A DNA stretch of 64,000 nucleotides from a virus: IMG/VR virus record IMGVR_UViG_3300045988_078625. The stretch is one strand, 5' to 3'. The position numbers were made by a program, and so were the translations under genes. Positions 1,519 to 42,628 of this stretch are shown here, in pieces. The notes below the pieces were generated by a model, which had not been told where the DNA came from, ran no database searches, and was given only the letters and a program-made list of their open reading frames with translations. The stretch's first letter is position 1. Each line of letters opens with the position of its first letter.

Positions 1519-1519
1519 A

Positions 1520-1729
1520 TTACTATATTATTAAAGTTTCTTCAACTACATCATGATCTATTCCTTCTATGGAAGCAGTTAAGTCCTCAACAGCTTTCTG
1601 AAGTTCTGCTTTAGTAGCATAGTTCTTGAGAGTATCAGGATCTACTCCAGACCCTCCTACACTACCACTAACAACTTTTACAGGCTTAGCAGAGCTTTTA
1701 AACTGTCCGTCAATATAAATTGTTCCCAT
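1520..1729 (-). CDS. Small hypothetical late protein that ends with TAG followed immediately by TAA
   Basis: Matches ORF 1523..1729 (MGTIYIDGQFKSS...). Its ATG overlaps the upstream gene's TAA by one base. Confidence 0.45.
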
Positions 1730-1734
1730 CTTGT

Positions 1735-3603: not shown

Positions 3604-5192
3604 TATTGTGATAGAATAAAGTTAATTTGGTGAGGTAGTGCTGAAGAGTAGGTATCCTTCTTAGTCCATACTTTATATGGGAATCCATTTATTTGTTCAG
3701 TAGAAGCTTCCCAACCATTCAGATCGACATTCAAATATCCCAATCCTCCATCTACTGTGAAGGAATTTAGCTGAGTATTACTTCCTGGTAGTTTTATAAT
3801 AGCCCTACCGCTTAACGAAAATGTAATAGTGCCAGAAGCCTAATTAAATGGAACTAAAGACTATTTTATTAGCCCATCAGTATTTCCGGAATACCAAGGA
3901 TAAGTAGCTGTTACTTGTGCAGTTGCTGATATAGAACCAGCTTCTACCCTCTTATCCGTGATTTCTCCCTTATTGTTTACTAGGTATTCTCCAGCAGCAT
4001 AGTTTACTGTACCAGAATGAGTATAAACTCCAATAGAATCATATGTAGCAGACTCTATAGGAGAACCGTTATAAGTAATAACTTCTTCTCTGCCAGTTTC
4101 TTCTCCTGCATCATTTTTTACGAAAGTTAAGGTTGGGTTTAGTAATGCGGTTCCTACTTCCACAATTTGGGAAGTAAAGCTATAATACAACTATGGATAT
4201 ATTAAATCTCTGACTACTGTTGGGAATAGTAAAGTATCTATGATTTCATTAAATGGTTTTCCTTTTAATTTTTCAACAGTAGTACCTTCTATAACAGTAG
4301 AAGTTGTATCATCCGGAAGTTCTGTCTAATAGGTAGCTATAGTTTCTAGACTAGTCTAAATATTTGTAATACTCTCACTATTAGTACTAACTTTTTCATT
4401 AGTCTCTTCCTAAGCTTTCTATACTTCTTCTATAGATTTCTAAGCTTCTTCTAACTAAGGTTCTAGATTCTTTACATAGATTCCTGGAAGAGTTATAGTA
4501 GAAGGTTCCCCTCCTTCTTCTGCAGGAGGTAATTCCTATTCAATTAAATGAATAGCATTATCATCCTGCTTAGAAAGAATAACTTCTATAGTATTATCTT
4601 CCTTTATCTCTACAGTCTTAGAGTTCTAAAGATTGTTTTTAATCCAATTAAGAATGTTCTTATCAACGTCTATATTTTCTATAGCAGCATTGATATTAGA
4701 TATTGCCTAATTAATTTCAACTATATCCTAAGACAAGTTATTTAGTCCTTCCCTATTAGTATCAATCTCTCTTTTTAGATCTTCTCCTAATACCTAAATG
4801 CTAGTCCTAATATTACTTATATCAACCTTTATCTCTTCTATTTCCTCAGTATTAGCCTCATACTAACTAATAAAAAACAATGCATAGTCTAATGCATCTT
4901 TTACAGTGTTAATATTCTCTGCAACATCGCTAGTATATGTCCATTTTTGTTCAATATACTAAACTAAGTCTTTCTAGGCCTCTATAGTTCCACTAATGTT
5001 TCCCCAAAGAAGACTCTACTCATCAGCAATTCCTAAGTTTTTTCTAACCTTAGCTCTTTCTAGTTCTGTTCTATATTCTCCTAAGTAATTATCTCTCAGA
5101 AGTGGTATAGGCTCACTTTTTATTAAATGTCCTTTCTTTCCACAAGGCTTTATGTCAGCATTGCTTACCGAAGTGTAAATAGGCTGTATCAT
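3603..5192 (-). CDS. Structural protein of about 529 aa, TAG-recoded, rich in coiled coil
   Basis: Fragment 3861..4190 is internal. Translation runs from MIQPIYTSVSNADIKPCGKKGH to ...INFILSQ and ends in TAA. Confidence 0.45.
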
Positions 5193-5347
5193 TATGATTT
5201 AATAGTTGCTATTTAATAAATTCGTGATTATCTAGTTTTACAGGTAGATTAATAAAACAGATTAAATTCAAAATATCTTGATAATCTGGTCTATATCCTT
5301 TCTTAATTCTTCCAAGAAACTCTTCATACCTTTTAATAGCCTTTCTT

Positions 5348-6079
5348 TTAAGAGCATCCACAACTTATATGTTTATGTCCATGATGGCGAGTATTGCAGA
5401 ATCCTCCACAAGTGCGGAACATTGCTAGCAATCTTTCAGCTTCCATGAATTGTTTAAAGCCTATTAAATAATCTATAATGTTGAGAGTCATCCAAATAAA
5501 ATCTCTGGCAAAAATATCTGCCTCATGTTCATTGGTAACACATTTATTTAGGAGTCCGTCAAATAATTTTTTACAATAATTAATATAGCACTATTGCAAA
5601 TTCCCTGTAAAGAATACATCTACCTTACACTTCTTGATAGTAGTGCCTTCTATGTTTCTTTCTAGAATTTCCTTTACCGTACACTCTTCTAACTCTCCTT
5701 CTACTTCTTTATATAGTTTCTCCCCATCTGTAACATAGATAGTTTCGTAGTATTCCTTATATTCATCAGATGAATTTTCATACCACTTCATATTAGGAAG
5801 TATTATATGATCTACCACATAATATCCATCCTCTTTTACTTTAAATGTACATGAATCTAAATCTTCTGTATGGTCATTTAAAAGGACATCTATTAGTGTG
5901 GCATCCCCTATACTTACCTTGATGATAGTATTTAGAGTAGCACTCTCACTATACTTATAAGAGTCGTAAGAAGTTACTACTTCTAAATCTTCATCAATAT
6001 ACTATCCATATTCTTTAGAGAAGTCTTCAATAGTTATTTCCCCAGTAATCTGGGTATGTATATCAATACTAAATTCCAT
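5348..6079 (-). CDS. Hypothetical late protein with a C-terminal Cys/His cluster, TAG-recoded
   Basis: Fragment 5591..5818 is internal. The C-terminus reads CGGFCNTRHHGHKHISCGCS and ends in TAA at 5348-5350. Confidence 0.45.
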
Positions 6080-6948
6080 TATTGTATAATTGACATCAAA
6101 TGAGGACCGTGCCATCTAACGTTATTTTCATCACTATTCAATACTCCGTTTACTGATGTTGCAGTAATCATCCACATTTTTCCAGTAAAATTATCTGGAG
6201 TATCGCTAGACCACTAACTTCCAGGATCGTCACTTGTAGTATTAACAGCTGGTTTATCTCCAGAAGTAATGGTATATCGTAACTCTAACTAACTGTCAAA
6301 TGCCCACCTACCGTATTGAGCTGGTTCAGAATATCTTTTCCATAATCCTTCTACTCTCTTACGTGTTGATATAAATACATATGGAGTAGCTGGACCAATA
6401 CTAACTGGAGTTTCTGACCAGCCTTCTGGTAATTTATTGTCAAAGGCAGTCAAATCTTCCTAAGTATTTCCTTCAGAGTCTAATATAGGATCTCCATATC
6501 CATCCTTTAGTATTGGATAAGTAATAACTGGTGCAACCCCAGTTGATCTTGCAATATAGATATTCTGAATTTTCTCAGCAATATCTGTAGCAACAATTTC
6601 GTAAATCTCATTAAGTTTAGCAGTGTCTCCTTTATACGTGTATAGAGTTTTCTTCCAAACATACGGTCTTTCTGAGTCTGGTAGTTCAAAAATATCACTC
6701 CATGTTGACAACTTTTTTACTTCGGATTCATCTTTGGTATTTGTTTTACAATAAGTAACTACTACCATGATATTACTAGCTGCTTCCGAGTCCCCACTTA
6801 GTTCTGAGACCTTTTTCCATAATTTTACAAGGTTGTCTTCTACATCTGACTTACTTCCAGAAGCATTACTAATTACCACCTCTGCATGAGAAATGGGATA
6901 TATTTGTTGCTAATCTTTATTATATACTATTGTACCTGCTGTAGCCAT
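6079..6948 (-). CDS. Hypothetical structural protein, TAG-recoded
   Basis: Fragment 6460..6879 is internal. The gene starts with MATAGTIVYNKDQQQIY two bases after the portal stop. Confidence 0.45.
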
Positions 6949-6949
6949 A

Positions 6950-9124
6950 TTAATGTATTTGTCTTACTTTATCGTTATATGGATTTCCGTCATGAAGCTA
7001 TGCTAACTCTATTTCAGTTCTCTTCTCTTCAATATCCATTTGTCTATCTTTGTAAGTAGAATCAGACTGAGCTTTAAGCCAATTAACCTTATACTCTAGT
7101 TGCATCTTCTACTGTTCTAGTCCAAGTTTTTGTTCGTCTAGCCTTTCTATTTTCTACTAAGCTTTCTCCAATTCCTATTGTAGTTGTTGTGCTTGCTATG
7201 AAGTTTCTTCCAACTTCTACTACAACTATTGTAATTGATTGTTCTCTTCTTTCTAAACCTGCATAGCTTTTTTAACCTTGTACTTTAAGTCTGTCAAACT
7301 CTTAGCTGTTAATGCTTCAAAAACTATACCAGCATCCATTTGCTAACTCTTAAGGAACTCCGGAATCATAGCTTTAATAGTCTATAAATCTTCCATAACT
7401 TCAGTGCTGGAGGTTATATGAATGTCAAAATCAGTCATTGTGAAATATTCAGGAAGGGCAGTAAATATCTACTAATACTTATCTCCCAATATAATAGTTC
7501 CAGTTAACCCTTTCTTGTAAGTTACTTTAGCCTAATTAAGACTATCTAATAATATTTCACAAGTTATCAAGTCCATTTGTTGGAAATAGTGTTTAGTTAC
7601 TATATAAGAGTTAGCGACTCCTTGCTTAATATTAGTTACAGCATCATGAGTCTCTATTCCATTAAGTCTTTCCCTAAATACTCCAGTTATAGATGATGTA
7701 GTCTATTCTACTGATTGAATAGCTAACTCAATAGCCTATACAGCCTACGCTTTAAGGGTGTCATCAAATCCATTAAAGATAGTATTTAAAGGAGCGTTTC
7801 CATTGTCATTTCTACCCTCCTAAGTAGTATCAACCCACTGAATACCAGCTTTTTTATAAGCTAGCCATTTCTATACTCTTTCTGGCCAATGTACTCCTAA
7901 GTTAGTAGGAAGTAATGACATATCCATAATAACTCCTGAGGTTCCACTATTAGCTATCAAGTTGTCTCTGTAATAGTTAAGTAAGTCATATCTATCCTGT
8001 AGATGTGCACACTTAAGTATTAAAGAATATGGCTACTGAGAACGATTTAGAAAATAAACTCCATTTACTGATAATGAACAAGAGTTAGGATCGTCTTTAG
8101 ACCTCATTGCAGTCTTGTCTAATCCTCTAAGAATATAGATTTCCTCTCCTATTCTTATAGTATTGTATCTCTGCATTTTGAAATCATCATCAGTCTCTAT
8201 CCACTCTACATCGTAGACCGGAATTAACTAAAATCTATGAGCACTATATTCATTATCTGGATACCCAGGAATGGTCTCATGATTTTGATCTTCATTAACC
8301 ACTGTACAAACATCTCCATAAACTCTTCTGTATACAGCAGCAGAATCATCTGCTCTCCATTCATCTTTTAACCTCTTTAAGTCTTCCCTAGATATTTCTT
8401 TACCATACTTAGCTAGTATTTGGCTTTTACTCATCCATTTTCTAATAACAACTCTATATGATTTCTTGACATATGGAGATTCTGGATTTCTATCAACAAA
8501 CGTATTTAATGGGTTAAGAACCTCTATCTCCACATTAGTTCCGGAGAAAGAAGACTTTACTCTAAAGAATGTGTATCCAGTAATTAGTAAGTCAGTTAAT
8601 AACTACCGCAACTTAGTAATAAGATCAGTTTCCCTAGATTGCATTAGGTAGTGAATAATGTTCTGCGCAGCAATTTCATACTGAGAAATGAATGACTAAT
8701 CAATATCCTATATAACCTTATCTAGCTGAGTCTTTACAGCTTTATCAGTAATATCTTTTCCGTCAATAAAGCTTAAGATAGCATTACTTAAGTGATCTTT
8801 TAAAAACTTAACTATTCCTTTAGTTATCTCTAGCTATTTTTCTCTGGTTATATTACTGATAGTATCTGAATCTTTGCAAGAGACTTTCGGGAGTATTGGA
8901 GTTCCTAGATATTCCCCTACTAAAGCATCTACATGCTTCTTAAGTAGTGGTGTAAATTCTACTGATGTAGGACTGCCTATTCCAAAATTCTCTTCAAGAT
9001 AGCGAAACTATTCTGGATCTCTTTTACCATTATAATAATTATAAGCTTTCTAAAGCTCATATTTATCATACACAAGTTCCGCAATAGCCTCGTTTGTTTT
9101 GTCTATCAATTCTTTCTCTTTCAT
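6950..9124 (-). CDS. Portal protein of about 724 aa, TAG-recoded
   Basis: Sits immediately downstream of the terminase large subunit. Fragment 8228..8533 is internal. Size and position match a crAss-like portal. The C-terminal tail is very Gln-rich when TAG is read as Gln. Confidence 0.5.
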
Positions 9125-9321
9125 AACATGTATTATGTTGTTCTGGAGGAAGCTTAGTGGCGTTATAATACTTAACTCTCTATAACTTCCTACTTCTTAA
9201 TTCTTCTTTAATAAAAGGCAGAAATTCATCATCGGGTAAATCAGCTATGATTACTAATGGCATCTCAGACCTGTCAAAGTTAAAAGATATTTTGTAACCA
9301 ACTGGATTCAAATCCTCAATC

Positions 9322-11682
9322 TCAAGTCCGCCTATATATTCCATTTGGTATAAGTCTCTCATATACTCTAGGATCACTTGTTTCAATTCTGTATGGGTCA
9401 TCGTATTCATCGTCTTGCATATTTAATTCTGGAGTTTCGCTAGTTGGTATAACTCCAAATCTTTTTATTCCTCTCTCATCGTAATAATAACCAAAATCCC
9501 TGAACAATTCAACTTCTTTTTCCACAACTATAGGTTGTCTTCCTGATAACTCTTCGTCTGCTAATTCTGTCATACCCATAGCTGCTATAATATCGAACTT
9601 ACCTTTATTCTCGTCATTATATCCAGTAAGCTATTCCAACATTTCTTCAAACCATATAGTATGACAATAATCTTCCACAAACGCAGCAGTTAGATCAGTG
9701 TGTTGTTCTATAATAGTTTTAGTAGCTGGAGTTCCATACTATTTAGTAGTTCCATTTTTAACATCAGTAAGAGTAGCTCTAGGACGTTTCATAAAGTAAT
9801 TCAAACATTTCTTTTCTCTAGCCCAGGTAATCATACCAACACGAGTTGCTTCTATATTTACCTTACAGTTGTAGTATCTAAGTAAACACATAGCTATTTT
9901 GTAAGCCTCTCGAATGTCTCCAGGTCTGTCCTTATACATTGCTACATACTATGGCTCACTCATACCAAATGCCCTTCTCTTAATAGTTATACAGAAGTCA
10001 GAAGGATCTTTAGTTTCCTTCGAGGTCTAATTAGCTCCTATATCAATACCGTCTATTCCTGCAATATAAAGATTATGCATTTCTTTATATACAGGTGCTT
10101 CAAATTCCTCTCCTCTTTCCTCTGCTTCCTATCTAAGTTTATCCATCTACTCCTTATATAGGTCAGACCATACTGGATGTTCCAGAATCTTTACCTTTCC
10201 CTTAGTATTAGGAATCCACTTAAATCCATCAATGTTATCAGCAGTGTGTTTATTATTTTTATAGAAGTAATCTATATAACCACATTCTGGTCTGGGACCT
10301 ATTTTCTTTAGTCTTATATTAGCTAATTGATCAGAAATAAGAATTTTGTTAAACTTGTTAACACCTTCTAGATTGAAGGCTTCTTCTGCATTCCAACAAC
10401 GTTCAGCACACTTCTTTAAATAGTCATCGGGTACTGCTAATAGATTATCTCTTTCTTCCTACAGATACTTCTTATATTCTACGGTATTACATACGCCTCT
10501 ATGATCCATGTATTCGGAGTTCAAAGACTGTACAAAATATGGAATAAAGAATCCACTCTCAATAGTAGTCCCATCTTGAGTATAATTATGTCTAAAGGGA
10601 AGAACTTTGTAAGCTTTTGGATTATAGTAAATCTTTTTAAGACCTGCTAATGGAGCACCCATATCACCACCAGTACCTCCAAACAACATTGTTCCACGAG
10701 GCTTACCCTAGACTTCACAAAGTTCTTGTCCTTGTACCACAGCAGTATCTAATCCTGGCCAAGACCCTGCTTCGTCATATATTAATAAGTCAACACGGTC
10801 TCCACGAATATTAGATGGTTTAGCTCCATTTATTCCTACTACTTCTGATTTAAATCCAACATCTTCAAACTATCCGTTTACTTTAACCTACTTACCAGAC
10901 TTCTTTCTTAAATCCTGGTCAATTAGACGAAGCTTAAAGAATCCTCCACCTGTGCAAGTATTTAAAAATGTTAGAGCATTATCAAACTTACTAAATGTAC
11001 CTTTAAGGAAGGTATCATTAAAGCAAGTAATCATTACTCTACTTCTTCTAATTACAGAATACATACGAGCGGATAGTGAGGCATTTATTTCTGAGAATCC
11101 GATTGAACGAGCCTTCATTAAAGCTGCATGTCTATGTAGTACTCTAGCCATTTGTAAGTAATGGAAGAACATGTAATGGGATGCAAAGAATATAGGGAAG
11201 TCACTATTAGTTCCTTCACCGGATGCTTTATTATCATCAATAATAGGAAGCTAATAGAAATTTAAGAAGAAATAGTTATCTCCAGTAATAGTATAACCAT
11301 TAACTGTCATTCCATATTTACATCTTCTGTACTACTCTTTCCAAAATTCATTGTATCTCTTACTGTCTTTTAAGTAGGGACAATACTTCCCAGTCTTTCT
11401 GTATACTTCTCTGGTTTCGGTGAACCATTCGGGATTAAAGTCCAAACCATGCGTTTCATCAATAGGTCTATAGCCAGTTATCTCATAAGACAAAGTAGGG
11501 TCAAAAACATCTATCTTGTCTCCTTTCTTGACGTCCCAATAGTCTGCACTTTTGACCCTTTCTTCTCTTATTTTCTATACTAGCTCTCTTGCCTCTACAG
11601 CATCTTCTTTATGTTCTTTTTCTCTTACCTAATCTACTATAGTCTATAGTTCATCAGGTAATATCTTTTTCTTTCTTGGCAT
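9322..11682 (-). CDS. terL: Terminase large subunit of about 786 aa, TAG-recoded
   Basis: Fragments 9322..9579, 9739..9939, 10459..10689 and 10888..11172 join into one frame through TAG. The ATPase region contains LLIYDEAGSW as a Walker-B-like motif, and the C-terminal RNase-H-like nuclease region contains IAGIDGIDIGANQ. The real stop is TGA at 9322-9324. Confidence 0.65.
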
Positions 11683-11684
11683 AA

Positions 11685-12245
11685 TTAAAATTCTCCAGGA
11701 TCAAAACCATCTGTAGCCCCTCCTCTAACGGTAGACTATTCAGTAAGTTCTTTTTTAACCTCATCTTCTAATGTAATTAATTCTTCGTGAACTTTATGAA
11801 GGCTAGCCATTTCCTTCATTACTTTCTCAGCAGAGAATACTGGCTTTCCACTAGTGTCACGTTCATTTAAGTCTACAATAGTATCGAAGTAATCAATAAA
11901 CTAGTCAGCAGCTCTTCTAGCAGCTTCTAATAATTTAATTGATTTATTTGAGTCCTATAATGCTCTATATTTTCTACATGCTTCCCTAAATATCGGATCA
12001 TTAAATTCTGATTCTGTTAATCCAGAATCATTAATTGCTTCATCGTGCCTTTCATATTCAGAGTACTAGCTATACGGACTCTTCCAATCAATAGCTAAAT
12101 AAATGTATGATAGTTCTCTAATTGCTCTATCCTTTTCCACAGATTTATCTCTTTGCAGTAAAGCTTTAAACTCTTTAACTAGAAGAATCTCTGGTTCATT
12201 TATTTCTAACTATTTAGTTAAAGTGTTATAGTTAAATACATTCAT
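11685..12245 (-). CDS. Putative terminase small subunit or packaging protein of 186 aa, TAG-recoded
   Basis: Lies directly upstream of terL with its stop two bases before the terL ATG. The identification rests on position only. Confidence 0.35.
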
Positions 12246-12278
12246 AATCATTAATCATTAACATTCGACAATCTTTTC

Positions 12279-13493
12279 TTACTTCTTCATTTTAGAGCCA
12301 CACTTGCTTACTTTCATTTTAGAGCCACAAGCATCCTTTTTAGTATATTGCTTTCTATCAGGAACCCATTTTCCCTTTTGGAAGTTTCCTTTATGTCCTT
12401 TATTAGACATGGTTTCCTAATCATTATATTTATTAATAGATATAGAATCTCTGGAAGCTTCATCTTTCGCTGATTTCATATCTTTCTTATACTGTGCTCT
12501 TCCTTTCTTAAATTTGTCTACCTCGTTACCTTTTACCTTAGCACCTTTCTAAGCTTTCTGGCAGGCTTTACAAATTCTACCTCCTTGTTTAAAATAAACA
12601 AGTTCTTCCCCTTCTGGGCAAACTCCTTTTAATTTTTTATAGTACTCAAGCTTAGCTCCTAATCTAGCCATAACTCCACCTTGCATTTTTTGCATAAATT
12701 CCTGGTATTTGGCTTTAATTCCGTCTTCTCCTAATTGCTGAGCATATTGTTCTAAATCCTACTCAGATTGTAATTGTATTCCTTGTGCTGCGGCATCCTG
12801 TATTAAGTATGCCATAAATGCTTTTTGTAATTCTTCCTAATTAGCCATTGCTCCTCCTTGTTGATATTTAACTCGTTGCTATCTAGCAGTTGCCTTTGGT
12901 ATATGTTCCCAACTTCTCTAATTTTTGAGCTATTCTGGAGTTAGTTTCTGCCCATACATATTAGTTGTAGGCGGCTTTATCCATTGTTCTTGGATAGTTC
13001 CAGTATGCTCTCCAGTTTCCTAGTCTACTTGATTTTGGTACGTAGTAGCTCTTTTTCCGTCTTGACTATATGTAACATAGGGATTATTCATTACTGGAGT
13101 TCCTACCTCTACTGTTGCTTTCTTTCCATTAGCTAACTATGTTCCATACACTCCTTTCCCCCATTTGAATTGAGTTAGTCCTCTCTTTCTGGCTTCTCTA
13201 AATGCTGTACCAAACCCCTAGACTCCTCTTAAGTCGTCGTTTTGAATTTGTTGCTAAGGTGCATTTATTTTCTTAGGAATAGTAGGAGTAGACGGCTTTA
13301 ATCCTAATATAGGTTTTTGTTGTATAGCTGGCACAGCACTTCTTTTCTTCTACTATGCAGTATTTCTAATAGAGTTCGGATTACTTTGCCAAGTCTAATG
13401 CAACTGTTGTAAAGTTCTTCCGTCTAACTCTGCGTCTCCATATATAGTCTTGATATGCTACATTAACTCTGGATCAAATTGTATTTTCGCCAT
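12279..13493 (-). CDS. Gln-rich hypothetical protein of about 404 aa with CxxC pairs, TAG-recoded; the first gene of the recoded block
   Basis: Manual translation starts MAKIQFDPELMQHIKTIYG and ends ...CGSKMKK with TAA, passing through about 25 in-frame TAG codons that read naturally as Gln. Confidence 0.5.
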
Positions 13494-13703
13494 TATTCTT
13501 CTACTTTAATTAAGTCTTTTGTATTAAATACTGCTTCTTGCATCAGTCCAGAATCAGTAAACCATCTACATCTAAGTCCGCGCAATCCCTGGTTATCTTT
13601 AAATAATGCTGATTCCCTTCTCAGAACAAGCATTACTGGAGAATGCATTACCTTACACTACCGTAAAGTAACACAATCCCCAGGTTTGAAATAAACTTTC
13701 TCA

Positions 13704-14429
13704 TCAATTGTTTCCATCCTCTCTAAGTAAATTAATTCCTATCTTTTTGTATTCCATCCAATTCTTTATTCTCTCAGGTAAGCTATCTCCAAGCTCTTTT
13801 GGGATCTTATCTATATCTACATTTATACAGTCTTGAGATTGCTTAATTTGGTCTCTCCTTTCAGTTAGTTTCTCATTAACTACAGCCATGATTCTATTCT
13901 CATTAACTACTACGAATCCTAGTTTGTAAAATGGAACCATACATTCACTAGCTATAGTATAGAATACAATATCACCAGGCTTTAAGAACTCACACTTGTG
14001 GCCTACCTCTACTACAGTACCTACCTTGATAAACTGTTGTTCTTCCTCAATTTCTCCAGTCTCGTTAGACTTGTATGTTGGAGCAAACCCTCCTAAGTCT
14101 GTAATTAATCCTGATTTAGTAGTCTTAATTTTTTGGAATGGGTTCTGTTCAAACGGCTTGATAAGAGCATACCCATACATAGGCATAATCTCTACACCAT
14201 TCATATCTTCTGATAATGAATTAGCATAATCCTCTAAAGCTTTATTATGTTTTGAGAATTTATCTTTTATTTCATCTACCGCTGTATTAAATCTTTCTTG
14301 TTTCTCTCTAAGTAATGTCTTATCTGCAGCTTCACCATTTAAAATAAAGTGTTCTCCTGTTCCTTCCATTCCGGTCAAAGATAAGGCTAGTTTCTCGTTA
14401 CTGTTTAATTCTGTTCTTAAATTTTCCAT
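13704..14429 (-). CDS. Protein with an N-terminal coiled coil and a C-terminal GroES/Cpn10-like domain, possibly a co-chaperonin
   Basis: Complete standard-code ORF ending in TGA. The C-terminal segment GLITDLGG...VGTVVEVGH...KPGDIVFY...NENRIMAVV resembles the GroES fold. Confidence 0.5.
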   Translation of the reverse strand: MENLRTELNSNEKLALSLTGMEGTGEHFILNGEAADKTLLREKQERFNTAVDEIKDKFSKHNKALEDYANSLSEDMNGVEIMPMYGYALIKPFEQNPFQKIKTTKSGLITDLGGFAPTYKSNETGEIEEEQQFIKVGTVVEVGHKCEFLKPGDIVFYTIASECMVPFYKLGFVVVNENRIMAVVNEKLTERRDQIKQSQDCINVDIDKIPKELGDSLPERIKNWMEYKKIGINLLREDGNN

Positions 14430-14437
14430 AATTCATT

Positions 14438-14755
14438 TTACCATTTACATAAATCACAATGTTCATCTTCTATTCTAGTTTTATTCTCTAATATACAACC
14501 ACATTCCTCACATACTTCTCCAACAGAAGTATATAACTTGTGAGGACAAGTATTACAAATCTTTAATCTCTTGGTTGCTAAATCTTGATTTATTCCGAAT
14601 ATATTAAAATATATACTCTTTAATATTGTTAGAGGCTTAGTAAATATTGCCTTAATCCATTTTTCTGTCATATCTTCTCTACTTTCTTCTTTTGTTTCCT
14701 GATAAGTAAGTACATAAGCCTTATCGGGTCTATACAGCACGGGAGTTCCGTACAT
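14438..14755 (-). CDS. Zinc-finger protein
   Basis: Part of ORF 14438..14821, with the start moved to an internal Met that overlaps the upstream stop. Contains CNTCPHK...CEECGC. Confidence 0.4.
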   Translation of the reverse strand: MYGTPVLYRPDKAYVLTYQETKEESREDMTEKWIKAIFTKPLTILKSIYFNIFGINQDLATKRLKICNTCPHKLYTSVGEVCEECGCILENKTRIEDEHCDLCKW

Positions 14756-14970
14756 TACCATTTCCCTGCAGGACAATGTTTTTTCTCGTTTGGAATCTTC
14801 TTCTCTAGTAGACATCCGCATCCTTTTATATAACCTTCTTTTGGTCCTATACTTATATCATTATTTTTTGGATTTAGATATAAATTTCCATTACATAATC
14901 CATTATCTTGGTCGCATATAGGACATCGTCTACATATTTTCCACCGTTCTTCAATTTCTTCTAATGTCAT
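14755..14970 (-). CDS. Small zinc-ribbon protein
   Basis: Contains CRRCPICD...CNGN...CGC...HCPAGKW. Confidence 0.45.
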   Translation of the reverse strand: MTLEEIEERWKICRRCPICDQDNGLCNGNLYLNPKNNDISIGPKEGYIKGCGCLLEKKIPNEKKHCPAGKW

Positions 14971-14972
14971 AA

Positions 14973-15887
14973 TTAATATTCAATACGTTGACGTTTTCTT
15001 TTGTTTTCAGCTAGTACAGATTCTTTTTTATAAAACAATAGCATTCTAATTACTTCATCTTTTAGGTAAGGTAGATGATATACTGTCATATTATCACTAT
15101 GATCAAAGTGAACTAATACTAAATCTTCAATCTCAAACTCCGGATTCTTTTTTTGTATCATCCAGGCGTAAGTACTTAATTGAAGTGCATAATGCCAATA
15201 ATTAACATCATCTAAATTATTTAGAGGATATTTCATCTTAACTGATGATTTGGTTTTAGAATTAAAGAAACTCTTGGTTTCTATCTTCTTATTAGTTTTC
15301 CAGTCTCCTATAATTATCTTATTACCTCTTTTAACTAGTAGGTCGATTTGTCCAGCTATTCTAAGTTTTCCATCTTCCGATACTCTAGATATTAAATACT
15401 CAGGATATACCCCATTCTCTAAATCTAATTCATTATGGTCTTTTACACACTCAAACTTACCACCTATTTGATATTTACTAAGGTCTATGTTCTTCTTCTT
15501 TTTGTAAAAAGAGTTTTCTAAATCTGCATGAATCTTAGTTCCTCTTTCGCAAGAGTTCCTATTCTCTAAATCCCACGCATCTAAGATAGCTTGTTGTTCC
15601 TTATTAAACTCGTCTTCTGTAATGTTATGAAGCTCAAGTAGAACTTTGTCAAATTTCTTAGTATTCAGTAATGACTTTTTCTCAATAGCCCAATCTTCTT
15701 TAGACAGAAGTTTCTCTAATGCTTTATAGGCTGACCAGAACTCTTTGTCAAAGGGTTGGGTGAAAGAATGTATTAAAGTCGTCACAGATATAAATTTCTG
15801 TTCAGGCTCTGTAACATCATAATAAATATGAGCCTCCTCCTCGAAAGCTATGTTCCCATTTTGTTTTGTAATTTTACTTTTGTCCAT
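14973..15887 (-). CDS. Nuclease of the PD-(D/E)xK superfamily
   Basis: Contains GQIDLLVKRGNKIIIGDWKTN, which fits the D...D/ExK motif. Confidence 0.45.
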   Translation of the reverse strand: MDKSKITKQNGNIAFEEEAHIYYDVTEPEQKFISVTTLIHSFTQPFDKEFWSAYKALEKLLSKEDWAIEKKSLLNTKKFDKVLLELHNITEDEFNKEQQAILDAWDLENRNSCERGTKIHADLENSFYKKKKNIDLSKYQIGGKFECVKDHNELDLENGVYPEYLISRVSEDGKLRIAGQIDLLVKRGNKIIIGDWKTNKKIETKSFFNSKTKSSVKMKYPLNNLDDVNYWHYALQLSTYAWMIQKKNPEFEIEDLVLVHFDHSDNMTVYHLPYLKDEVIRMLLFYKKESVLAENKRKRQRIEY

Positions 15888-16002
15888 TAGTCATAATTCA
15901 TTTAATCATTTATCACATTTATCTATATTTATTTGATACTTTTCAAGTATATTAATATTCTTTGTAAGACACAAATCAATAAATAATACATTATATTAAA
16001 AA

Positions 16003-16344
16003 TGTCTAACAGTAGAAAAATTACAACATTTGGATGTCCTATTTTCAAGAATGGATCAGGCATTCATATTAAGAAAGAGAACAGAGGCAAATTTACAGCC
16101 TCGGCTAAAGCTGCAGGAGAATCAGTACAAGAACACGCTACAAAGGTATTAAATAATCCTAAAGCTACTCCGCTTTAGAAGAAGCGAGCTAATTTTGCTA
16201 GAAATGCTTCTAAATGGAAACACGAAGACGGAGCTAAGATACATAAACCAGGAGGGCATAGGTCTATATTAGATAATGGATGGATTCCTACTACTAGATT
16301 AAAGAAAGGAAATTATGGATTTATTAAAACTAAGAAACGATGAA
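16003..16344 (+). CDS. Candidate Lys-rich basic protein of 113 aa with a single in-frame TAG at 16177-16179
   Basis: Runs from the ATG at 16003 to a TGA at 16342-16344 with one TAG in between. Each half is under 60 aa, so it is missing from the ORF track. It lies between two minus-strand gene blocks. Confidence 0.3.
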
Positions 16345-16612
16345 AAACATTATTAAGTGCATTAAAGAGATTGTATTGAGAATATATCTGTATTTACTAT
16401 TTATATTTAAAAAGTAACATGGACTATAACAAAGCAACTTTACATGCAGCTACTGGTCGTACTCTACTACTTCCAGGCTGGAAGGGATATTTTTATTGGG
16501 ATTATAATAAATAGGAATTGAACTTTAGAAATGGGGATTATCACTTGGATAATAAATAGCTCCGAGAAAAAGGAGTTATGGAGAGAACTGATTGGTATTA
16601 TATCATATAACA

Positions 16613-16650
16613 AAATAGGCGAGCCTAGAGATTAGGTTCGCCTATTTTTA
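16613..16650. terminator. Bidirectional intrinsic terminator
   Basis: The hairpin is AATAGGCGAGCC...GGTTCGCCTATT. It is followed by a T-run on the plus strand and by an A/T-rich tract in the minus orientation, and sits directly 3' of the minus-strand gene 16648..16863. Confidence 0.5.
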
Positions 16651-16863
16651 TTTAATTTTTGCATTATAAGTACAAGTGATTCTATTTATATCATCCCACC
16701 AAGGTTTATCCGATGGTTGTCTAATATTACTTGGAATATTTATTGTAGAAGTATAAGTTTCTACTATAGCATCTAGTATTTTGAATAATGTATCCAAATC
16801 AAATTCTGGAAATTCATCATGTAAATTTGTTAATGTCTTTTTAAAGTCTATCATATCCTTCAA
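16648..16863 (-). CDS. Hypothetical small protein
   Basis: ORF in the track, standard code. Confidence 0.4.
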   Translation of the reverse strand: MKDMIDFKKTLTNLHDEFPEFDLDTLFKILDAIVETYTSTINIPSNIRQPSDKPWWDDINRITCTYNAKIK

Positions 16864-17080
16864 ATGTATTATTAATTATAGCTTTTTCTATTGTGGTATC
16901 TTTATATAGTCCGTTCTTGATTATATTTCTAACGGAGTTATCAACTACATTCCATATATCAATTAGTAAGGATTTATTTTCCGGAAGGCTTTTTAAAATG
17001 CTTTCCAAATAACTAGCCTTTACCATATTTAATAATTGTCCATTAATTAGGACTTCAAACTTAAATTCCCTATCCCACAT
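16841..17080 (-). CDS. Hypothetical small protein
   Basis: ORF in the track. Confidence 0.4.
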   Translation of the reverse strand: MWDREFKFEVLINGQLLNMVKASYLESILKSLPENKSLLIDIWNVVDNSVRNIIKNGLYKDTTIEKAIINNTFEGYDRL

Positions 17081-17245
17081 ATTTAATGTGTTACACTTAA
17101 TTCATTTAGTCTATCTAAGTAATCCAGAAACCATTGTTCATTTTGTCTTCCATTTTCCTCAATATCTTCAATAATGGTTTCAATAAGCACTAGTGTTACT
17201 TTTGCTAAAGATTCTACTTTTGGATTAGTAAGTTCGTTATATCTC

Positions 17246-17560
17246 TCAATCAACTCTTTCATAATCCCTCCAGTCTTTGTTATACTTTTTAATATGTTCT
17301 AGGTCTGGATAGATACTTACTATACTCCATCCCGTTTTTGGGTTTATAAAACGGTAAAGTTTTGATTCTTCTATTTTCTCCTCTTCTGGATTTCTATTTA
17401 ATGTTCTATTCCAGTAGCTGTATTTTTCATCTAACATATCCATATCACATTCCTCTAATATTTTCATATTAGGGTTATTCTTTATTTTATCATATTTCCT
17501 TTTTAAGTTGGAAACCTTGATAACATCATTACCATTCAATACAACTGCGCATTGCTTCAT
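17246..17560 (-). CDS. Hypothetical protein
   Basis: ORF in the track. Confidence 0.4.
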   Translation of the reverse strand: MKQCAVVLNGNDVIKVSNLKRKYDKIKNNPNMKILEECDMDMLDEKYSYWNRTLNRNPEEEKIEESKLYRFINPKTGWSIVSIYPDLEHIKKYNKDWRDYERVD

Positions 17561-17784
17561 TTTACTACTTTATAAGTACATATTTTACCTATCTGCTTTC
17601 CTTGAACTGTTATTTGTGGAAGAAAGTAGCAGGCCTGATTCTCAAATTCTTGAGGTATAAATATGTAATCGAACCTACATCCAACTACCTTATCACAAAC
17701 TTTATTCCAATCATCTCCCTCTTCAATAATGAGGGTTTTAGCTCCAGTTGGAGTTACTGCATAATTCTCATTTAATTTTATCAT
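17557..17784 (-). CDS. Hypothetical protein, with the start trimmed to an internal Met so it does not overlap the suppressor tRNA
   Basis: ORF 17557..17859 would overlap the tRNA at 17802..17873. The internal start reads MIKLNENY. Confidence 0.35.
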   Translation of the reverse strand: MIKLNENYAVTPTGAKTLIIEEGDDWNKVCDKVVGCRFDYIFIPQEFENQACYFLPQITVQGKQIGKICTYKVVK

Positions 17785-17801
17785 AGCTATTAATTTTGGA
17801 G

Positions 17802-17873
17802 TTGCCCTACTAGGATTCGAACCCAGACTAAATGATTTAGAGTCATCTGTGCTGACCATTACACCATAGGGCA
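17802..17873 (-). tRNA. Amber-suppressor tRNA with anticodon CUA, derived from a Gln tRNA
   Basis: Acceptor stem TGCCCTA/TAGGGCA, D-arm GTGT-AATGGTCA-GCAC, anticodon stem GATGA/TCATT with loop CTCTAAA, T-arm CTGGG-TTCGAAT-CCTAG. The overall architecture is almost identical to tRNA-Gln(TTG) at 33537. Confidence 0.75.
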
Positions 17874-18841
17874 GTATTTATTTCTCCTTTAGAGATTTGT
17901 TTTCTTCTGTTAGTCTCTCTAGTTCTTTCTTTAGCTATTCATTTTCTTGGAATAATGCTTGCATAGTAGTATTCAAGTTAGCAAGAAGTATTCTTATTTG
18001 AGCTATTTGTTCATACATTTAGCAATGATTTTAAATATTCAATTTGTTGATTAACTAATTTTGATAGAGCTTCTCTAAACTTAGCAATCCCACTTCTTAC
18101 TGTTTCTAATTTACCACTCTCTAAACATGCTTGTATTCTATGAATATTATCTTCTCCCAAATATTCACATACTCCTACAAATAAATCATCATCTAAAGAT
18201 TCTAGATATTTTTGGAATGTATCTGCTTCCTTGTTCGCTAAACAACTTTCTTCTTCCTATCTATCATAGGATATTAATAAGAATAGAGAATCATCAGTAG
18301 ACTCTGATTTAATGGTGAGTCCTTTTTTTGAACAATAAAACTCTTGATTCTAATTAATTGCTTTAACGAGTTCTTTAAACTCATCCTAATTTAACAAAGT
18401 TTCTAAGTCTGTAATCATAATTGTTTTCTTTTTAGTTATATACAACAATAAGCTCTCAAAAGTTAAACGCAAAGTTAAAAAATTCTAATTCCAATATTAT
18501 ACATATTTCATTTAGTTACTGGCAAACAAGTACCGGTACTTTATATAAATAGCCCCCTGGGGTTAAAATAAAGTCCGGATTTTTATAGAGAAGGTGCTGA
18601 CCTATATTCCGAAAATTATAAGAGTGAGTGTAGTTACGGTCCACAACCCCCTTAGTCCCCCCCTGTATATTGATATAAAACTAAAAATAAAATAACTATG
18701 TACGAAGAAGATTTATTAAACGAGTATGATTACACATTGGCGGAAGTTTTAAGAGAAGTAAGTTATTACAACTTTTACGATAATTCAGCTTTAGTGTGTT
18801 AAAAAACAAAAAACAAGTATAAACCTTTAAATTTTACAGTT

Positions 18842-19291
18842 ATGAACTTAGAAGAATTGAAAAATCAGAATGTGAGTATAGAAGAACGCGCGAAAAGCGT
18901 AGTAAAAGACTTAGGCTTGAATGGTGATGAACGTTCGGTTGTGATTGGCTTGAAAAAGGGGGACAAATTCTCCCTTGCTGCCATGAACAAAGTAGAATTA
19001 ACTACACAAACTCAGCAAAGAGAAGGACAAGCCCGTTTTATTCCTATTACTTTCACAACTGATAACGGTGCATCTATCGGCGCAAAACACTTTGCAGGTG
19101 TGGAAATCGACGAAAACGCTCCGGCTGTTGGTAGCACACCGTTGGAAAATGCAAATTTCCTTGTTTGGTGTATAGACCACAAAGTAGTATTTTCAATCAA
19201 AAGTATCAGCACAGAGGACATTCCGAAGTCGGATACAACTCCGGCTTACGTAAAGAAAACTTACAAACTTGAGGTTGAGGATTACGAGTAA
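18842..19291 (+). CDS. Hypothetical early protein encoded in a local patch of higher GC
   Basis: ORF in the track. It is the first plus-strand gene after the divergent region. Confidence 0.5.
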   Translation: MNLEELKNQNVSIEERAKSVVKDLGLNGDERSVVIGLKKGDKFSLAAMNKVELTTQTQQREGQARFIPITFTTDNGASIGAKHFAGVEIDENAPAVGSTPLENANFLVWCIDHKVVFSIKSISTEDIPKSDTTPAYVKKTYKLEVEDYE

Positions 19292-19297
19292 AAGATT

Positions 19298-19319
19298 GGG
19301 GAGAAATCCCCTTTCTTTT
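19298..19319 (+). terminator. Intrinsic terminator
   Basis: Hairpin GGGGA-GAAA-TCCCC followed by TTTCTTTT. Confidence 0.55.
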
Positions 19320-19342
19320 AAATACAAATAGTCTTTGTAGTT

Positions 19343-19543
19343 ATGAACACAAGAGAAAAGTTCAAAACTAAAAAATGTTTGTATCACTGGGGAGCCGTCT
19401 ACGACCCAGAGACAGATGAAAAGTTAAATTTCAAAGCCGATAGAGTTTATTGCAAAACCTCTTGGGCTTGGATTATGACTTATCAAAAGTCAGAAGAAGA
19501 TATTCCGAAGATAGTAAGAATAGTCTTTATAGATGAACCCTAA
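19343..19543 (+). CDS. Hypothetical small protein
   Basis: ORF in the track. Confidence 0.4.
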   Translation: MNTREKFKTKKCLYHWGAVYDPETDEKLNFKADRVYCKTSWAWIMTYQKSEEDIPKIVRIVFIDEP

Positions 19544-20265
19544 GGTATTATGGGTTTCAAAATAAAATACCCACATGAACTCCATCATCGGACCATTGGT
19601 TAACGGAGAAAACAACAAAACAAAACAAAAACTTCAAAATCAATTCGTCGTAGTTATTTTATTTTAGTATTATATTAAGTAATGTGGTTCTAATGTAGAT
19701 TGGGACTATTGTTGCACGTGAAAATATGGTAAGGGTTGAGAGAAATTGTCCACTAAAAAGACAGCCGATTTTCCGACTTTTTCCAGTTTTCAAAAAATCG
19801 CCAGTAGGATGAGTTTTATAACACATACTACAATGATTATTTACTCTAACATTTGCCTATAAAAAGGTAACAAAAAGCGGGTTACGCAGAAGAACCCAAT
19901 ATCCGAAAATAACTGCTACGATTGTAATGTGTATATTCGCAAACTTGAACACTATTACAAGAGGATTGAGCCATATGAATGGTCACTTATGGCAATATTA
20001 CAAAGTACCACTGATATGCTGGTAGACCAAAGTATATCACCTATAAGTATTCGTATGTAATATTGGAAGTTGCCTGAAGTAAGCCATCAGATAGATATAG
20101 GCTAGATAGTAAGAGAGACGCTCATAAGGCGTCATTTTCCATCTCGAATCTATTCGCAAGTTTTGAGATTAGCTACCTCAGAATTTAGTGAACGTTGATA
20201 ACGTTGTATGTCTGGAAAACATACTAAATAATCTCCTATCTTATACTAGTTGTCAAGATAGGATT

Positions 20266-20336
20266 TCCCCATTAGTATAATGCTATTGCGCCTTCCTCTA
20301 AAGAAGGAGATTCTGGTTCGAGTCCAGAATGGGGAA
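20266..20336 (+). tRNA. Amber-suppressor tRNA with anticodon CUA
   Basis: Acceptor stem TCCCCAT/ATGGGGA, anticodon stem CCTTC/GAAGG with loop CTCTAAA, T-arm TCTGG-TTCGAGT-CCAGA. The D-stem is short at 3 bp. Confidence 0.65.
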
Positions 20337-20624
20337 CTTGGTATTTGAGGACTACAACTACTTGTAGACTCTGTTGCAGTTAAAGATTATAATGGGTACG
20401 CCCTGAGACTAATGCAGAGCATCTCTTATGAATAGAGGTGTCTTATCGTGAGATAAGGCAAAGTATTGTGAGATTGTACTAACAATCGAAGACAATCTTA
20501 AATGATTGTAGGCACAGGATAATTCATCTTCTTTTATCGTACATAGTGGTGCAGGTTGTTGAGAAACAATTGTGCATACTGGGAGACTTAGGTCTCCTAC
20601 TCCCAAGATAAGAACAACCGTTAC

Positions 20625-21017: not shown

Positions 21018-21509
21018 ATGAATACATTAGCATTAGATCATGTAAACAAGCGCGCAGAATTCGTAATGTCGTTTACTATTCCTTTCAAAGCAGTTGAAGA
21101 TCCAACGTCGCAGGCCAAGTGCTACAGTCCGCATGAAGTAATTATGGCATGGCAAGAGGTATGCATCAAAGCATTACGAATGAGAATCGATGCTTGTATG
21201 GAAATGTTGTTCCGCAACAAGGACAGAGTGATAGGCTCGGACGAACGTGGCGTTTTGTTTAAGAAGAAGAATGGAAATATTCACCACTTTTCTCATGCTA
21301 GCTGTTTTGCTATGGAGGCTTTCATAGAGATATTGGAAGAAGCAGAGAGTGCTGGGGACATAACTTTCGATGCTCTTCAAATACAGCAACTGATGAAGGC
21401 TTTGTACTGGATTCCAGATGAACTGAAGAACGATCATCAGGGAATAGGTTTTGGAGAACTAATTGACTGCTTGCTCTGCATTTTTAGCAACTCTCTGATA
21501 AACGAGTAG
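21018..21509 (+). CDS. Hypothetical protein that ends with TAG
   Basis: ORF in the track. The stop is TAG at 21507-21509, followed by a palindromic hairpin at 21510-21530. Confidence 0.45.
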   Translation: MNTLALDHVNKRAEFVMSFTIPFKAVEDPTSQAKCYSPHEVIMAWQEVCIKALRMRIDACMEMLFRNKDRVIGSDERGVLFKKKNGNIHHFSHASCFAMEAFIEILEEAESAGDITFDALQIQQLMKALYWIPDELKNDHQGIGFGELIDCLLCIFSNSLINE

Positions 21510-21511
21510 GA

Positions 21512-21591
21512 ACTATCGTTACGATAGTTCTAATAGTTTCATCATTTAATTAGCATATGAAATATAAGATTGAATTTAACTATCGTTACGG
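21512..21591. repeat. Direct repeat of the 13-mer AACTATCGTTACG (copies at 21512 and 21579); the first copy is part of the perfect palindrome GAACTATCG-TTA-CGATAGTTC
   Basis: Seen directly in the sequence, immediately 3' of gene 21018..21509. Confidence 0.5.
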
Positions 21592-22825
21592 TAAAGACTA
21601 TGTATACTGTAATGAGTACCATGAAGATGAGCGGTTCATACAGCCACTTAACTCTAACGGCAAGCCTTTATGTACTATCGCAAAGACCAACATAATAGCT
21701 ATTAAAGAGTGTAAGTAACTAAACAGAAAGCCAGCGCTGTAAAGACTGGCAACCTGGTTTAGCTCTTCTGAGTAGTTGCAAATACTTAGAATCCCTACAT
21801 CACAAAACGGACATAATGTATGTAGTGCCAAAAGTTAAACGTTCCTGCTTCATGCGTTAAAGCAGGAGTCCACATGATTGTTTTAATTATATTAATCTTT
21901 AAGTTTTAAACAGCGTCCTACATTGTAGGTTTCGGTAAGGCTCCTCTGCCGAGTAATGCGTACAAGAGCTATGATAGACTCACAAAGAAAATGTATTTGC
22001 GAGTAAATAATGGTGAAATCACATTGCTTTAAGTAGTAATGTGGGGACCATTCCGCCCTATTTGCAATTATGAACTGCATAGTGACAGAGACCTAAGAGA
22101 GGGAAGCAAATGAGCGTTGTTATCGTAGCGAAAGCTGCGTTCCACCATTGTACGTAGGGGTGTGTGGGTAATCGGCTAAAGGAACGTTCTGTTATAGTAT
22201 GTTGCGAGTACTGTGGCACAAGGGATAGCATGGCGGCTCGGAAAGACGAGCTTTACTTGCTGGTAGGATAGTTTAAACCAGTAGTGCTGTATCTTTTCGG
22301 CGGTTTACTAGTAACGCACTTAAAAGTTTAAGGACAAACCGTACAGGAAACCAATTCCGATTTATAAGTTTGGTGACAACTTGAAAGAGAGTGACAGCCT
22401 GGAAAGACAGGCACTATATTCGTTACTAATAATATAGATCCAGTATCAAAGGGCCGTGGATTGATACATGTCGGATTAATATGACGGTTTACGCTACTCC
22501 CTGGGCAAGAATAGTATAACGAAGTCCTAAAAGATTGTGTATACTCTAAACTTTAGAGGATTGTGCTATACACTCTATAATCCGAAGTATTCGCACAGTA
22601 CAAACTTGGATAGACGAAGTACAAGTCTAGACCTAAAGTTCTAAGTTATCTTAAAGAAGAGGATTATAAGGACTTTAAAAAACTCAATAACTTCCCAAGA
22701 CATTGAGGGCACCAGTTCTTTCATTCTTTCGTGGGAATACTACATGATTACAGTAGTATATTAGCGAAAAGGTAATCGTAATTGAATGAAAGTTTAGGTG
22801 TAAAATGCAAAAAAAAATTTAGATT

Positions 22826-33536: not shown

Positions 33537-33608
33537 TGGGCTATGGTGTAATGGTTAGCACTACAGATTTTGATTCTGTCAGTCTAGGTTCGAATCCTAG
33601 TAGCCCAA
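33537..33608 (+). tRNA. tRNA-Gln(TTG)
   Basis: Anticodon arm ACAGA-TTTTGAT-TCTGT. This is the structural template from which the suppressor tRNAs appear to derive. Confidence 0.7.
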
Positions 33609-38002: not shown

Positions 38003-38347
38003 ATGCAGAGTATTATTATGGCAGAATTGATTTTCTTAGCTAATGGAAGATGTGACTTGAAAATGCACGCACCTATCAAAAACTTCAAAAGAGTTGAGGT
38101 AGTAAAGCACAAAAGAAACTTCTTCAAGGTGTTCGTTGATCGCAACGACAGCGTTTATGACGTGAAGCGTTGCACAGTTATTACATGGAAGACTGTAGAC
38201 AACGGTAAAAGAAAATTGAATGTTCCGGACAAAGTTGAGGAGGTACGCGATGCCAATCTCTTCGACAAAATCAAGGGAAATCCATTCAAGATCGCACTTA
38301 CTAAAATAATTGGCGAAATTGAGGCCCAAGAATTACTACATTCGTAG
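38003..38347 (+). CDS. Hypothetical protein
   Basis: ORF in the track. Confidence 0.4.
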   Translation: MQSIIMAELIFLANGRCDLKMHAPIKNFKRVEVVKHKRNFFKVFVDRNDSVYDVKRCTVITWKTVDNGKRKLNVPDKVEEVRDANLFDKIKGNPFKIALTKIIGEIEAQELLHS

Positions 38348-38383
38348 TAACGTTTAGGAGAGTATCGTATAACTCTCCGTAAT

Positions 38384-42543: not shown

Positions 42544-42628
42544 CTACTATCGCCCAAAGGACGATAAGTATGGCGAGAGACTTGTTCTTCTAATCGCAAT
42601 GCCTGAAGTTGCGCACTCTACTTGCGGA

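Follow-up and report, generated by a model that had tools for sequence, protein, structure and literature searches.

A 64,000-nt stretch of viral DNA (IMG/VR virus record IMGVR_UViG_3300045988_078625, here called the window, from a phage type with a genome of ~185 kb) was analyzed for two transfer RNA (tRNA) genes with the anticodon CUA that lie on opposite strands, one on the minus strand at 17802–17873 (SupA) and one on the plus strand at 20266–20336 (SupB). Both are probably the phage's own amber suppressors, which would serve late genes written in genetic code 15 (UAG = Gln), with SupA derived from tRNA-Gln and SupB as a second, Gln-like tRNA. Direct support comes from the identity of both genes as tRNAs, their CUA anticodon, the assignment of TAG to glutamine, the glutamine ancestry of SupA, the arrangement of the genes, and their conservation. 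Judged from its sequence, the window comes from a crAss-like Bacteroidales phage of Zeta type, with code 15 in use in its late genes.

Identification of the two tRNAs

The presence of two CUA tRNAs on opposite strands had been proposed in an earlier reading of the DNA sequence alone (the original prediction), and was confirmed by two programs. ARAGORN called SupA at 17801–17873(−) and SupB at 20266–20337(+), both with anticodon cta, and the Rfam tRNA model RF00005 (gathering score 29 bits) matched 17802–17873 with 66.3 bits (E=3e-12) and 20266–20336 with 56.5 bits (E=2e-9), both far above the gathering score. The anticodon loop of both tRNAs reads CUCUAAA (U33, C34 U35 A36, A37), and its register is the same in the ARAGORN calls and the Rfam alignment. 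Base pairing across relatives was compared with slid controls, in which ~45–55% of cells were paired. The SupA family had 99.5% of cells paired, with double changes in 10 of 21 pairs, located in the acceptor, anticodon, and T stems, and the SupB family had 97.1% paired, with double changes in 5 of 21 pairs. Because of these scores, the paralogy, and the covariation across relatives, neither call is a chance match. In total, the window carries 27 (ARAGORN) to 29 (Rfam) tRNAs, among which SupA and SupB are the only ones with anticodon CUA and SupA is the only one on the minus strand; apart from these two, all are on the plus strand, within 25.4–49.7 kb.

Recoding of TAG in the late genes

The late/structural block occupies 1–13717 on the minus strand, and includes TerL (9322–11682), portal (6950–9124), and tail-like proteins, with 1–28 in-frame TAGs per gene, in agreement with the recoded late block originally placed on the leftward arm. 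Minus-strand open reading frames (ORFs) of at least 100 amino acids span 10.4 kb under the standard code and 32.9 kb with TAG read-through; since the long ORFs of the late block form only when TAG is read through, read-through is needed for them. The minus-strand genes at 13704–17784 contain no in-frame TAG, and the plus arm is nearly without them, giving the two-domain pattern of TAG-rich late and TAG-poor early genes, with the exception of two small TAG-containing genes upstream of SupA.

The amino acid at TAG was assigned from a codon-level DNA alignment of 51 distinct TerL genes, chosen to avoid circularity. All 51 were TAG-recoded (11–31 TAGs each), and none had an in-frame TAA or TGA. 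In the 66 columns containing TAG, the alternatives were mainly CAA (43 columns) and CAG (24 columns), although Gln sense codons account for just 2.1% of residues, and K and E were the next commonest. Of the 15 TAG columns of the window TerL, 12 were of Gln type, and the conserved columns had CAA/CAG as sole alternatives. The same alternation of Q and TAG between relatives was seen at three positions of the 46-amino-acid ORF at 17878–18018, and also at TAG positions of the 135-amino-acid ORF at 18011–18418. Because the TAG columns of TerL alternate mainly with CAA and CAG, the reading of TAG as Gln in this phage is well supported by codon comparison, and the Gln-like context noted for the recoded codons was thereby corroborated.

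On the plus arm, TAG is usually a genuine stop, with a second, backup stop (TAA or TGA) 1–8 codons further on. Such backup stops were found after the TAG-ended genes at 21018–21533, 23937–24179, 38003–38350, 41165–41749 (which terminates TAG TAG TAA), and 45932–46438, which suggests an adaptation of the early genes that lets them tolerate amber suppression.

Ancestry and conservation of SupA

The closest paralog of SupA is tRNA-Gln(UUG) at 33537–33608(+), called by both ARAGORN and Rfam. The two are 77% identical, with identical D- and T-arms and two acceptor pairs that are changed on both sides and thus compensated, so that the likeness in D-arm, T-arm, and acceptor noted in the original prediction stood up to alignment. 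The D-arm motif GGUGUAAUGGUyAGCAC, present in SupA and identical to that of the tRNA-Gln, was scanned against 185,579 species genomes, returning 120 loci. In Bacteroidales (Prevotella, Bacteroides, Alloprevotella, and others) it marked tRNA-Gln(UUG/CUG) with U1-A72 and A73 (38 of the 120 loci), and in Patescibacteria and archaea it marked tRNA-His (72 of the 120). Use of this D-arm as a universal Gln marker was therefore rejected, and it was read as Gln only within Bacteroidales. SupA, like the tRNA-Gln(UUG) of the window, shares the D-arm, U1-A72, and A73 with Bacteroidales tRNA-Gln, and has neither the G-1 nor the C73 of tRNA-His. Because of these shared positions and the missing tRNA-His features, SupA is by its identity elements a Bacteroidales-type tRNA-Gln with a CUA anticodon.

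Of 60 related loci, 49 have a SupA-type gene on the TerL strand and upstream of TerL, clades at 73% and 68% TerL identity among them, and SupA is unchanged in every relative whose SupB-type gene varies.

SupB and the RAGATH-14 module

SupB had been described as sitting in an ORF-poor region, which proved not to be empty. Directly 5′ of SupB lies a RAGATH-14 RNA (Rfam RF03145, 20065–20237(+), 166.3 bits against a gathering score of 149.1, E=7e-31, model positions 1–190), which ends 28 nt before SupB, followed by a conserved hairpin (CCTATCTT / AAGATAGG) at 20234–20263(+), with no T-run after it. The hairpin stem carries compensatory changes across phage groups and its loop is conserved. No terminator was found between RAGATH-14 and SupB in the 20065–20336 region. 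Relatives with at least 87% TerL identity keep the three elements in this order (RAGATH-14, hairpin, SupB-type tRNA), and RAGATH-14 pairing is the same in close relatives. In the 73% and 68% TerL clades, no RAGATH-14 was seen in the 0.8–3.2 kb covered upstream of SupA, and in L068 a RAGATH-1 hammerhead occupies the comparable position.

A search with the RAGATH-14 core pattern also returned crAss-like contigs of ~100 kb. In the five examined (L007, L010, L012, L017, and L020), RAGATH-14 and the hairpin are followed by a type III hammerhead core and no tRNA; in L017, the Rfam Hammerhead_3 match (42 bits, E=5e-8) begins 25 nt after RAGATH-14. Beyond the hammerhead, these contigs carry RAGATH-6, RAGATH-7, and hatchet ribozymes, tRNA-Leu, and RAGATH-9. 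The loci compared from the ~100 kb phages with RAGATH-14 span early and ncRNA regions. Because an RNA-cleavage element fills the slot in both phage groups, RAGATH-14 and SupB are likely co-transcribed and would be separated by RNase P. Self-cleavage is not known for RAGATH-14.

The anticodon at the SupB locus varies among relatives: it is CUA in most, UUA in several (e.g., L049, L050, L083, L090), and CUG, a Gln anticodon, in one ortholog at the same locus (L086). Degenerate forms include an odd 8-nt loop (L060), a 6-nt loop (L044), and a deleted D-arm (L053). Since the TerL of phages with a UUA-type SupB has no in-frame TAA, there is no sign of ochre recoding in that gene. Within the window, the combination of U1-A72 and A73 occurs in tRNA-Gln, SupA, SupB, and one odd tRNA-like gene only. 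Because SupB shares these positions with tRNA-Gln, TAG is read as Gln, and the L086 ortholog carries CUG, charging of SupB with glutamine is likely.

Upstream of the RAGATH-14 model by 30–80 nt, a further hairpin was observed at ~20000–20040(+) (GATATGC...GTATATC in the window, GACATAC...GTATGTC in relatives) that is conserved, shows compensatory changes, and has conserved flanks, and the RNA may extend past the 5′ end of the Rfam model. RAGATH-14 was not found by name in the papers searched. The only annotated genome found with RAGATH-14 was cr53_1, which is also TAG-recoded, so that both lineages in which the RNA was found (the Zeta-type clade and the Blohavirus cr53_1) are recoded. A broader proposal would make RAGATH-14 a conserved Crassvirales non-coding RNA tied functionally to amber recoding, with its 3′ end set by hammerhead or tRNA(CUA) processing, the RAGATH-14–SupB precursor acting as an early code-switch transcript, and CUA/UUA/CUG switching at SupB as live tuning of suppression strength; taken as a whole, this is regarded as very unlikely.

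Surroundings of SupA and the leftward arm

The GC skew of the window flips sign at ~17–19 kb. SupA had been placed at the head of the leftward transcription unit, and this did not hold: two conserved TAG-containing genes lie upstream of it, and a gap further along may split the arm. The first (18011–18418(−)) encodes 135 amino acids with 3 in-frame TAGs, whereas no TAG occurs in its homologs from the 73% and 68% TerL clades; the second (17878–18018(−)) encodes a 46-amino-acid protein with coiled-coil-like matches only and has one in-frame TAG, with 4 nt between its TAA stop and the SupA 5′ end. The statement about the genes directly downstream was correct, as ~4 kb of TAG-free genes (13704–17784(−)) precede the recoded late block. 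These include a 75-amino-acid ORF (17557–17784(−)) starting 17 nt after the SupA 3′ end, a PD-(D/E)XK-type exonuclease (14973–15887(−)), and a GroES-like protein (13704–14429(−)). Between them lies a 760-nt ORF-poor gap (15888–16647) with no ORF of at least 50 amino acids whichever way TAG is read and no match to an Rfam family, which may divide the leftward arm into several transcription units, and could hold a middle/late promoter or a novel RNA. Because the flanking ORFs leave no non-coding room for a promoter or terminator of its own, SupA would have to be excised from a polycistronic RNA.

A weak candidate promoter for the leftward arm was found at 18470–18525(−), with TTGCCA-18-TATAAT (matching at 11 of 12 positions) and a TAACTTTG motif ~50 nt ahead of the first gene. 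Scanning for sigma-70 promoters in the surroundings of the two tRNAs was uninformative (17 hits, 14.8 expected). The Bacteroidetes −7 motif TAnnTTTG matched once, close to where the leftward arm begins, was absent upstream of RAGATH-14, and showed no genome-wide strand bias.

A requirement for SupB in translating the TAG genes upstream of SupA was considered and rejected, since two relatives (L044 and L053) keep those TAGs despite a defective-looking SupB; for the same reason, SupA alone appears to suffice there.

Proposed mechanism and alternatives

In the proposed mechanism, SupA would be a duplicate of a Bacteroidales-type phage tRNA-Gln whose anticodon was turned to CUA. It would be transcribed within the leftward polycistronic unit, cut from the mRNA by RNase P and 3′ processing, and act as the conserved, essential suppressor. 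SupB would be a divergent, Gln-like tRNA(CUA) of the rightward arm, partly redundant and fast-evolving, and probably part of one precursor with RAGATH-14 and the 3′ hairpin, from which an RNase P cut at the SupB 5′ end would free both RNAs. Host enzymes would most likely supply both tRNAs with CCA and glutamine, and the TAG-rich structural genes could then be translated. The in-frame TAGs of essential late genes suggest indirectly that SupA and SupB insert an amino acid at UAG. The timing device that the original prediction saw in the placement of SupA corresponds to a published hypothesis, in which a suppressor tRNA times late-gene or lysis expression (Borges et al., bioRxiv 10.1101/2021.08.26.457843), and SupA and SupB may have such a role.

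Several observations weigh against this account. A Gln origin had been claimed for both tRNAs, and the alignments upheld it for SupA; for SupB it is only inferred, as no other tRNA is very similar to it (62% identity to SupA, 54% to tRNA-Gln), and its D-arm (AGUAUAAUGCUAUUGCG) is not of Gln type, has no G19, and forms a weak D-stem of 3 standard pairs and a U-U mismatch. The U1 on which the Gln assignment partly draws is also present in phage tRNAs for Asn, Thr, and some Lys and Met. SupB may be dispensable, since in several relatives its ortholog has a UUA anticodon, an odd or 6-nt loop, or a deleted D-arm. Because TAG-containing genes precede SupA, a simple order in which the tRNA comes first and the recoded genes later is a poor match, and the promoter scans (sigma-70 and TAnnTTTG) gave no convincing promoter for either unit, neither class exceeding chance regionally. 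Release factors, including RF2, and aminoacyl-tRNA synthetases were not found by Pfam or PHROGs among the genes flanking SupA and SupB and 10 larger plus-strand proteins (the Pfam scan for RF2 and synthetases covered 20 proteins of the 64-kb window). Likewise, the code-change module of Borges et al., a suppressor tRNA beside a synthetase or release factor upstream of a lysis cassette, was not found in the genes scanned.

SupB might alternatively serve chiefly as an RNA-processing punctuation mark, with RNase P defining the 3′ end of RAGATH-14, and suppression being secondary or dispensable. This would account for the self-cleaving hammerhead that fills the SupB slot after RAGATH-14 and the hairpin in the ~100 kb phages, for the variable anticodon (CUA, UUA, CUG, odd loops) and the loss of one D-arm while RAGATH-14 and SupA persist, and for the survival of the TAGs upstream of SupA where SupB looks defective (L044 and L053). 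Most relatives, however, keep a perfect CUCUAAA loop, compensatory anticodon-stem changes, and U1-A72/A73, and RNase P processing alone is insufficient because it would not select for any of these. A chiefly punctuating SupB is thus considered unlikely, and the punctuation and decoder roles are not mutually exclusive. A different doubt concerns the amino acid: charging of SupB with a residue other than Gln (e.g., Lys, whose tRNA also has U35 and A73) would make UAG decoding ambiguous. SupB has no Gln-type D-arm, none of the phage tRNAs is closely related to it, K and E rank next in frequency at TerL TAG columns, and ~30% of phage suppressor tRNAs are predicted to have non-Gln isotypes (Kienbeck et al., PMC10879173). 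K and E are, however, the usual substitution partners of Q, and conserved TerL columns pair TAG with CAA/CAG alone; SupB has the U1-A72 and A73 of tRNA-Gln, whereas phage tRNA-Lys has G1-C72, and the L086 ortholog carries CUG. Little credence is consequently given to a non-Gln SupB.

The suppressors could also act mainly against the host, by forcing the host's UAG stops to be read through and undermining defence, an idea proposed for Zeta clades reported to have a CTA suppressor without recoding (PMC12386605), and two suppressors would mean a higher dose. In-frame TAGs number in the hundreds in the essential late genes, which makes decoding a sufficient and necessary function, and the backup stops that protect early TAG-ended genes show that suppression is tolerated but not that it is directed at the host. 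A mainly anti-host role is considered very unlikely. The reading of SupA and SupB as a stable Gln-derived suppressor and a second, Gln-like one for the code 15 late genes is accordingly retained as the probable one.

One phage can therefore apparently retain two non-identical amber suppressors, one stable and embedded in an operon and the other fast-evolving. The coupling of SupB to the orphan RNA RAGATH-14, in the slot held elsewhere by a hammerhead, provides a testable processing model and a genomic context for RAGATH-14, and the natural CUA/UUA/CUG variation at the SupB locus forms a comparative series for suppressor origin and decay.

Other translation-related and non-coding features

A 3′ CCA is not encoded by any of the window tRNAs, SupA and SupB included, and a single C comes after nearly every one of them; a CCA-adding enzyme is therefore required, and none was seen among the scanned proteins near the tRNAs. 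The tRNA array is directly preceded by a radical-SAM protein (24454–25413). Within the array, an HNH endonuclease ORF at 39007–39543(+), probably a mobile homing-endonuclease gene, has internal TAGs at codons 48 and 77, and its neighbors are TAG-free. Two tRNA hits were found by Rfam and not called by ARAGORN, at 38542–38622(+), with U1-A72/A73 like tRNA-Gln and an anticodon loop of ~13 nt (an intron or a non-canonical tRNA), and at 40503–40575(+). Rfam also matched transfer-messenger RNA (tmRNA, RF00023) at 42030–42546(+) with 68.3 bits over 517 nt, against a model of 374 positions, and with no ARAGORN call; permuted-tmRNA hits occurred in some of the ~100 kb phages bearing RAGATH-14 (L012 and L020). 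The possibility that a phage with recoded stop codons encodes a tmRNA may merit attention.

Ribozymes resembling those of hepatitis delta virus (HDV) or theta ribozymes were sought 3′ of SupA and SupB, with a cleavage site within ±5 nt of the tRNA 3′ end as the criterion, using a home-made double-pseudoknot descriptor, which is rough and unvalidated, and none was found. The descriptor hit 2 of 208 tRNAs, both SupA-type(CUA) genes of the 73% TerL clade (L079:1611–1665 and L091:2490–2544), where a minimal HDV/theta-like candidate (P1 AATAGCA/TGCTATT, P2 AGTAGAA/TTCTACT) begins exactly at the tRNA 3′ end.

An ORF-poor stretch at ~22253–22724(+) is 91–96% identical to unannotated DNA in the Suoliviridae genomes cr53_1, cr55_1, and cr10_1, although TerL is only ~26% identical to Crassvirales terminases. 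It had no Rfam match and a folding z-score of −1.75, its copy in cr53_1 lies ~390 nt upstream of RAGATH-14, and it is probably a horizontally exchanged non-coding element. A search with the 149-amino-acid product of the first rightward gene matched close relatives only. Three contigs filed as metagenome-assembled bacterial genomes carry phage tRNA-Gln(UUG) or SupA-type tRNAs (L174, i.e., DXLM01000001.1, 186,052 bp, 'Bacteroides sp.'; L207; and L147, 'Tenericutes'), and look like crAss-like phage genomes binned with bacteria.

Phage assignment and comparison with known systems

Zeta crAss-like phages are described as 145–192 kb in size, with numerous tRNAs, introns, inteins, and late genes recoded at TAG or TGA (PMC7886860, PMC12386605). 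The TerL of the window is ~26% identical to Crassvirales terminases and 44–46% identical to unannotated human-gut phage contigs, close relatives in IMG/VR are contigs of 178–192 kb, the TerL homolog P0003 in relatives bears an intein, and a group I intron is present in relatives. Because this TerL divergence, the sizes of the relatives, the intein, and the group I intron match the Zeta description, the phage fits that group, as judged from these features (a deep-branching crAss-like TerL, large relatives, many tRNAs, introns/inteins).

Recoding of late-gene TAG to Gln with suppressor tRNAs, a two-domain TAG distribution, the timing hypothesis, and the origin of suppressors from tRNA-Gln have all been published for crAss-like phages (PMC7886860, bioRxiv 10.1101/2021.08.26.457843, PMC9523058, PMC10879173), and tabulated Zeta genomes have 176–189 kb, 23–27 tRNAs, a CTA suppressor, and amber suppression (PMC12386605). 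With respect to late-gene amber recoding, the window therefore adds one more case, which resembles the published code 15 Zeta phages (Yutin 2021, PMC7886860; Borges 2021; Peters 2022, PMC9523058) in its relatives of ~180–190 kb, 27–29 tRNAs, in-frame TAG confined to the late block, CTA suppressor, TAG aligned with Gln, standard-code Bacteroidales host, and relatives with inteins and introns. The increment lies in two distinct suppressors with unlike evolutionary behavior and in the module of RAGATH-14 and tRNA(CUA). The published Zeta and code 15 tables give anticodon types only, and two distinct opposite-strand CTA tRNAs of differing origins or a link to RAGATH-14 were not found in the texts consulted.

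The theta ribozyme-associated suppressor tRNAs (Kienbeck 2024, PMC10879173) are similar in belonging to code 15 gut Caudoviricetes of Bacteroidota and in coupling the tRNA to a structured RNA or ribozyme with a presumed part in processing. In those systems, a minimal HDV-like ribozyme located 3′ of the tRNA cuts at its 3′ end, whereas neither tRNA of the window is followed by an HDV-like fold, and RAGATH-14, the partner RNA, is on the 5′ side of SupB.

The annotated phage cr53_1 (NC_055889, Suoliviridae, Blohavirus americanus) has a tRNA(CUA), labeled tRNA-Gln in RefSeq, with the same 5′ acceptor strand and D-arm as SupA. As in the window, a TAG-recoded TerL/portal block is found downstream of this SupA-type tRNA on its strand, and RAGATH-14 is present in the genome. 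The cr53_1 tRNA differs in encoding CCA and in lying ~350 nt upstream of TerL, against a SupA–TerL distance of 5.2–9.2 kb in the related loci, so the spacing is not conserved; its RAGATH-14 is followed by a hammerhead and by other RAGATH and hatchet RNAs, with no tRNA, and a single suppressor was detected in the first 50 kb. The classical counterpart of SupA is Escherichia coli supE (glnV), a tRNA-Gln whose anticodon is changed to CUA and which inserts Gln at UAG; it results from one CUG-to-CUA substitution in a host gene, and its suppression is weak. SupA, by comparison, would have originated from a UUG-type phage paralog through two anticodon changes and additional stem changes, and would serve a whole recoded gene set.

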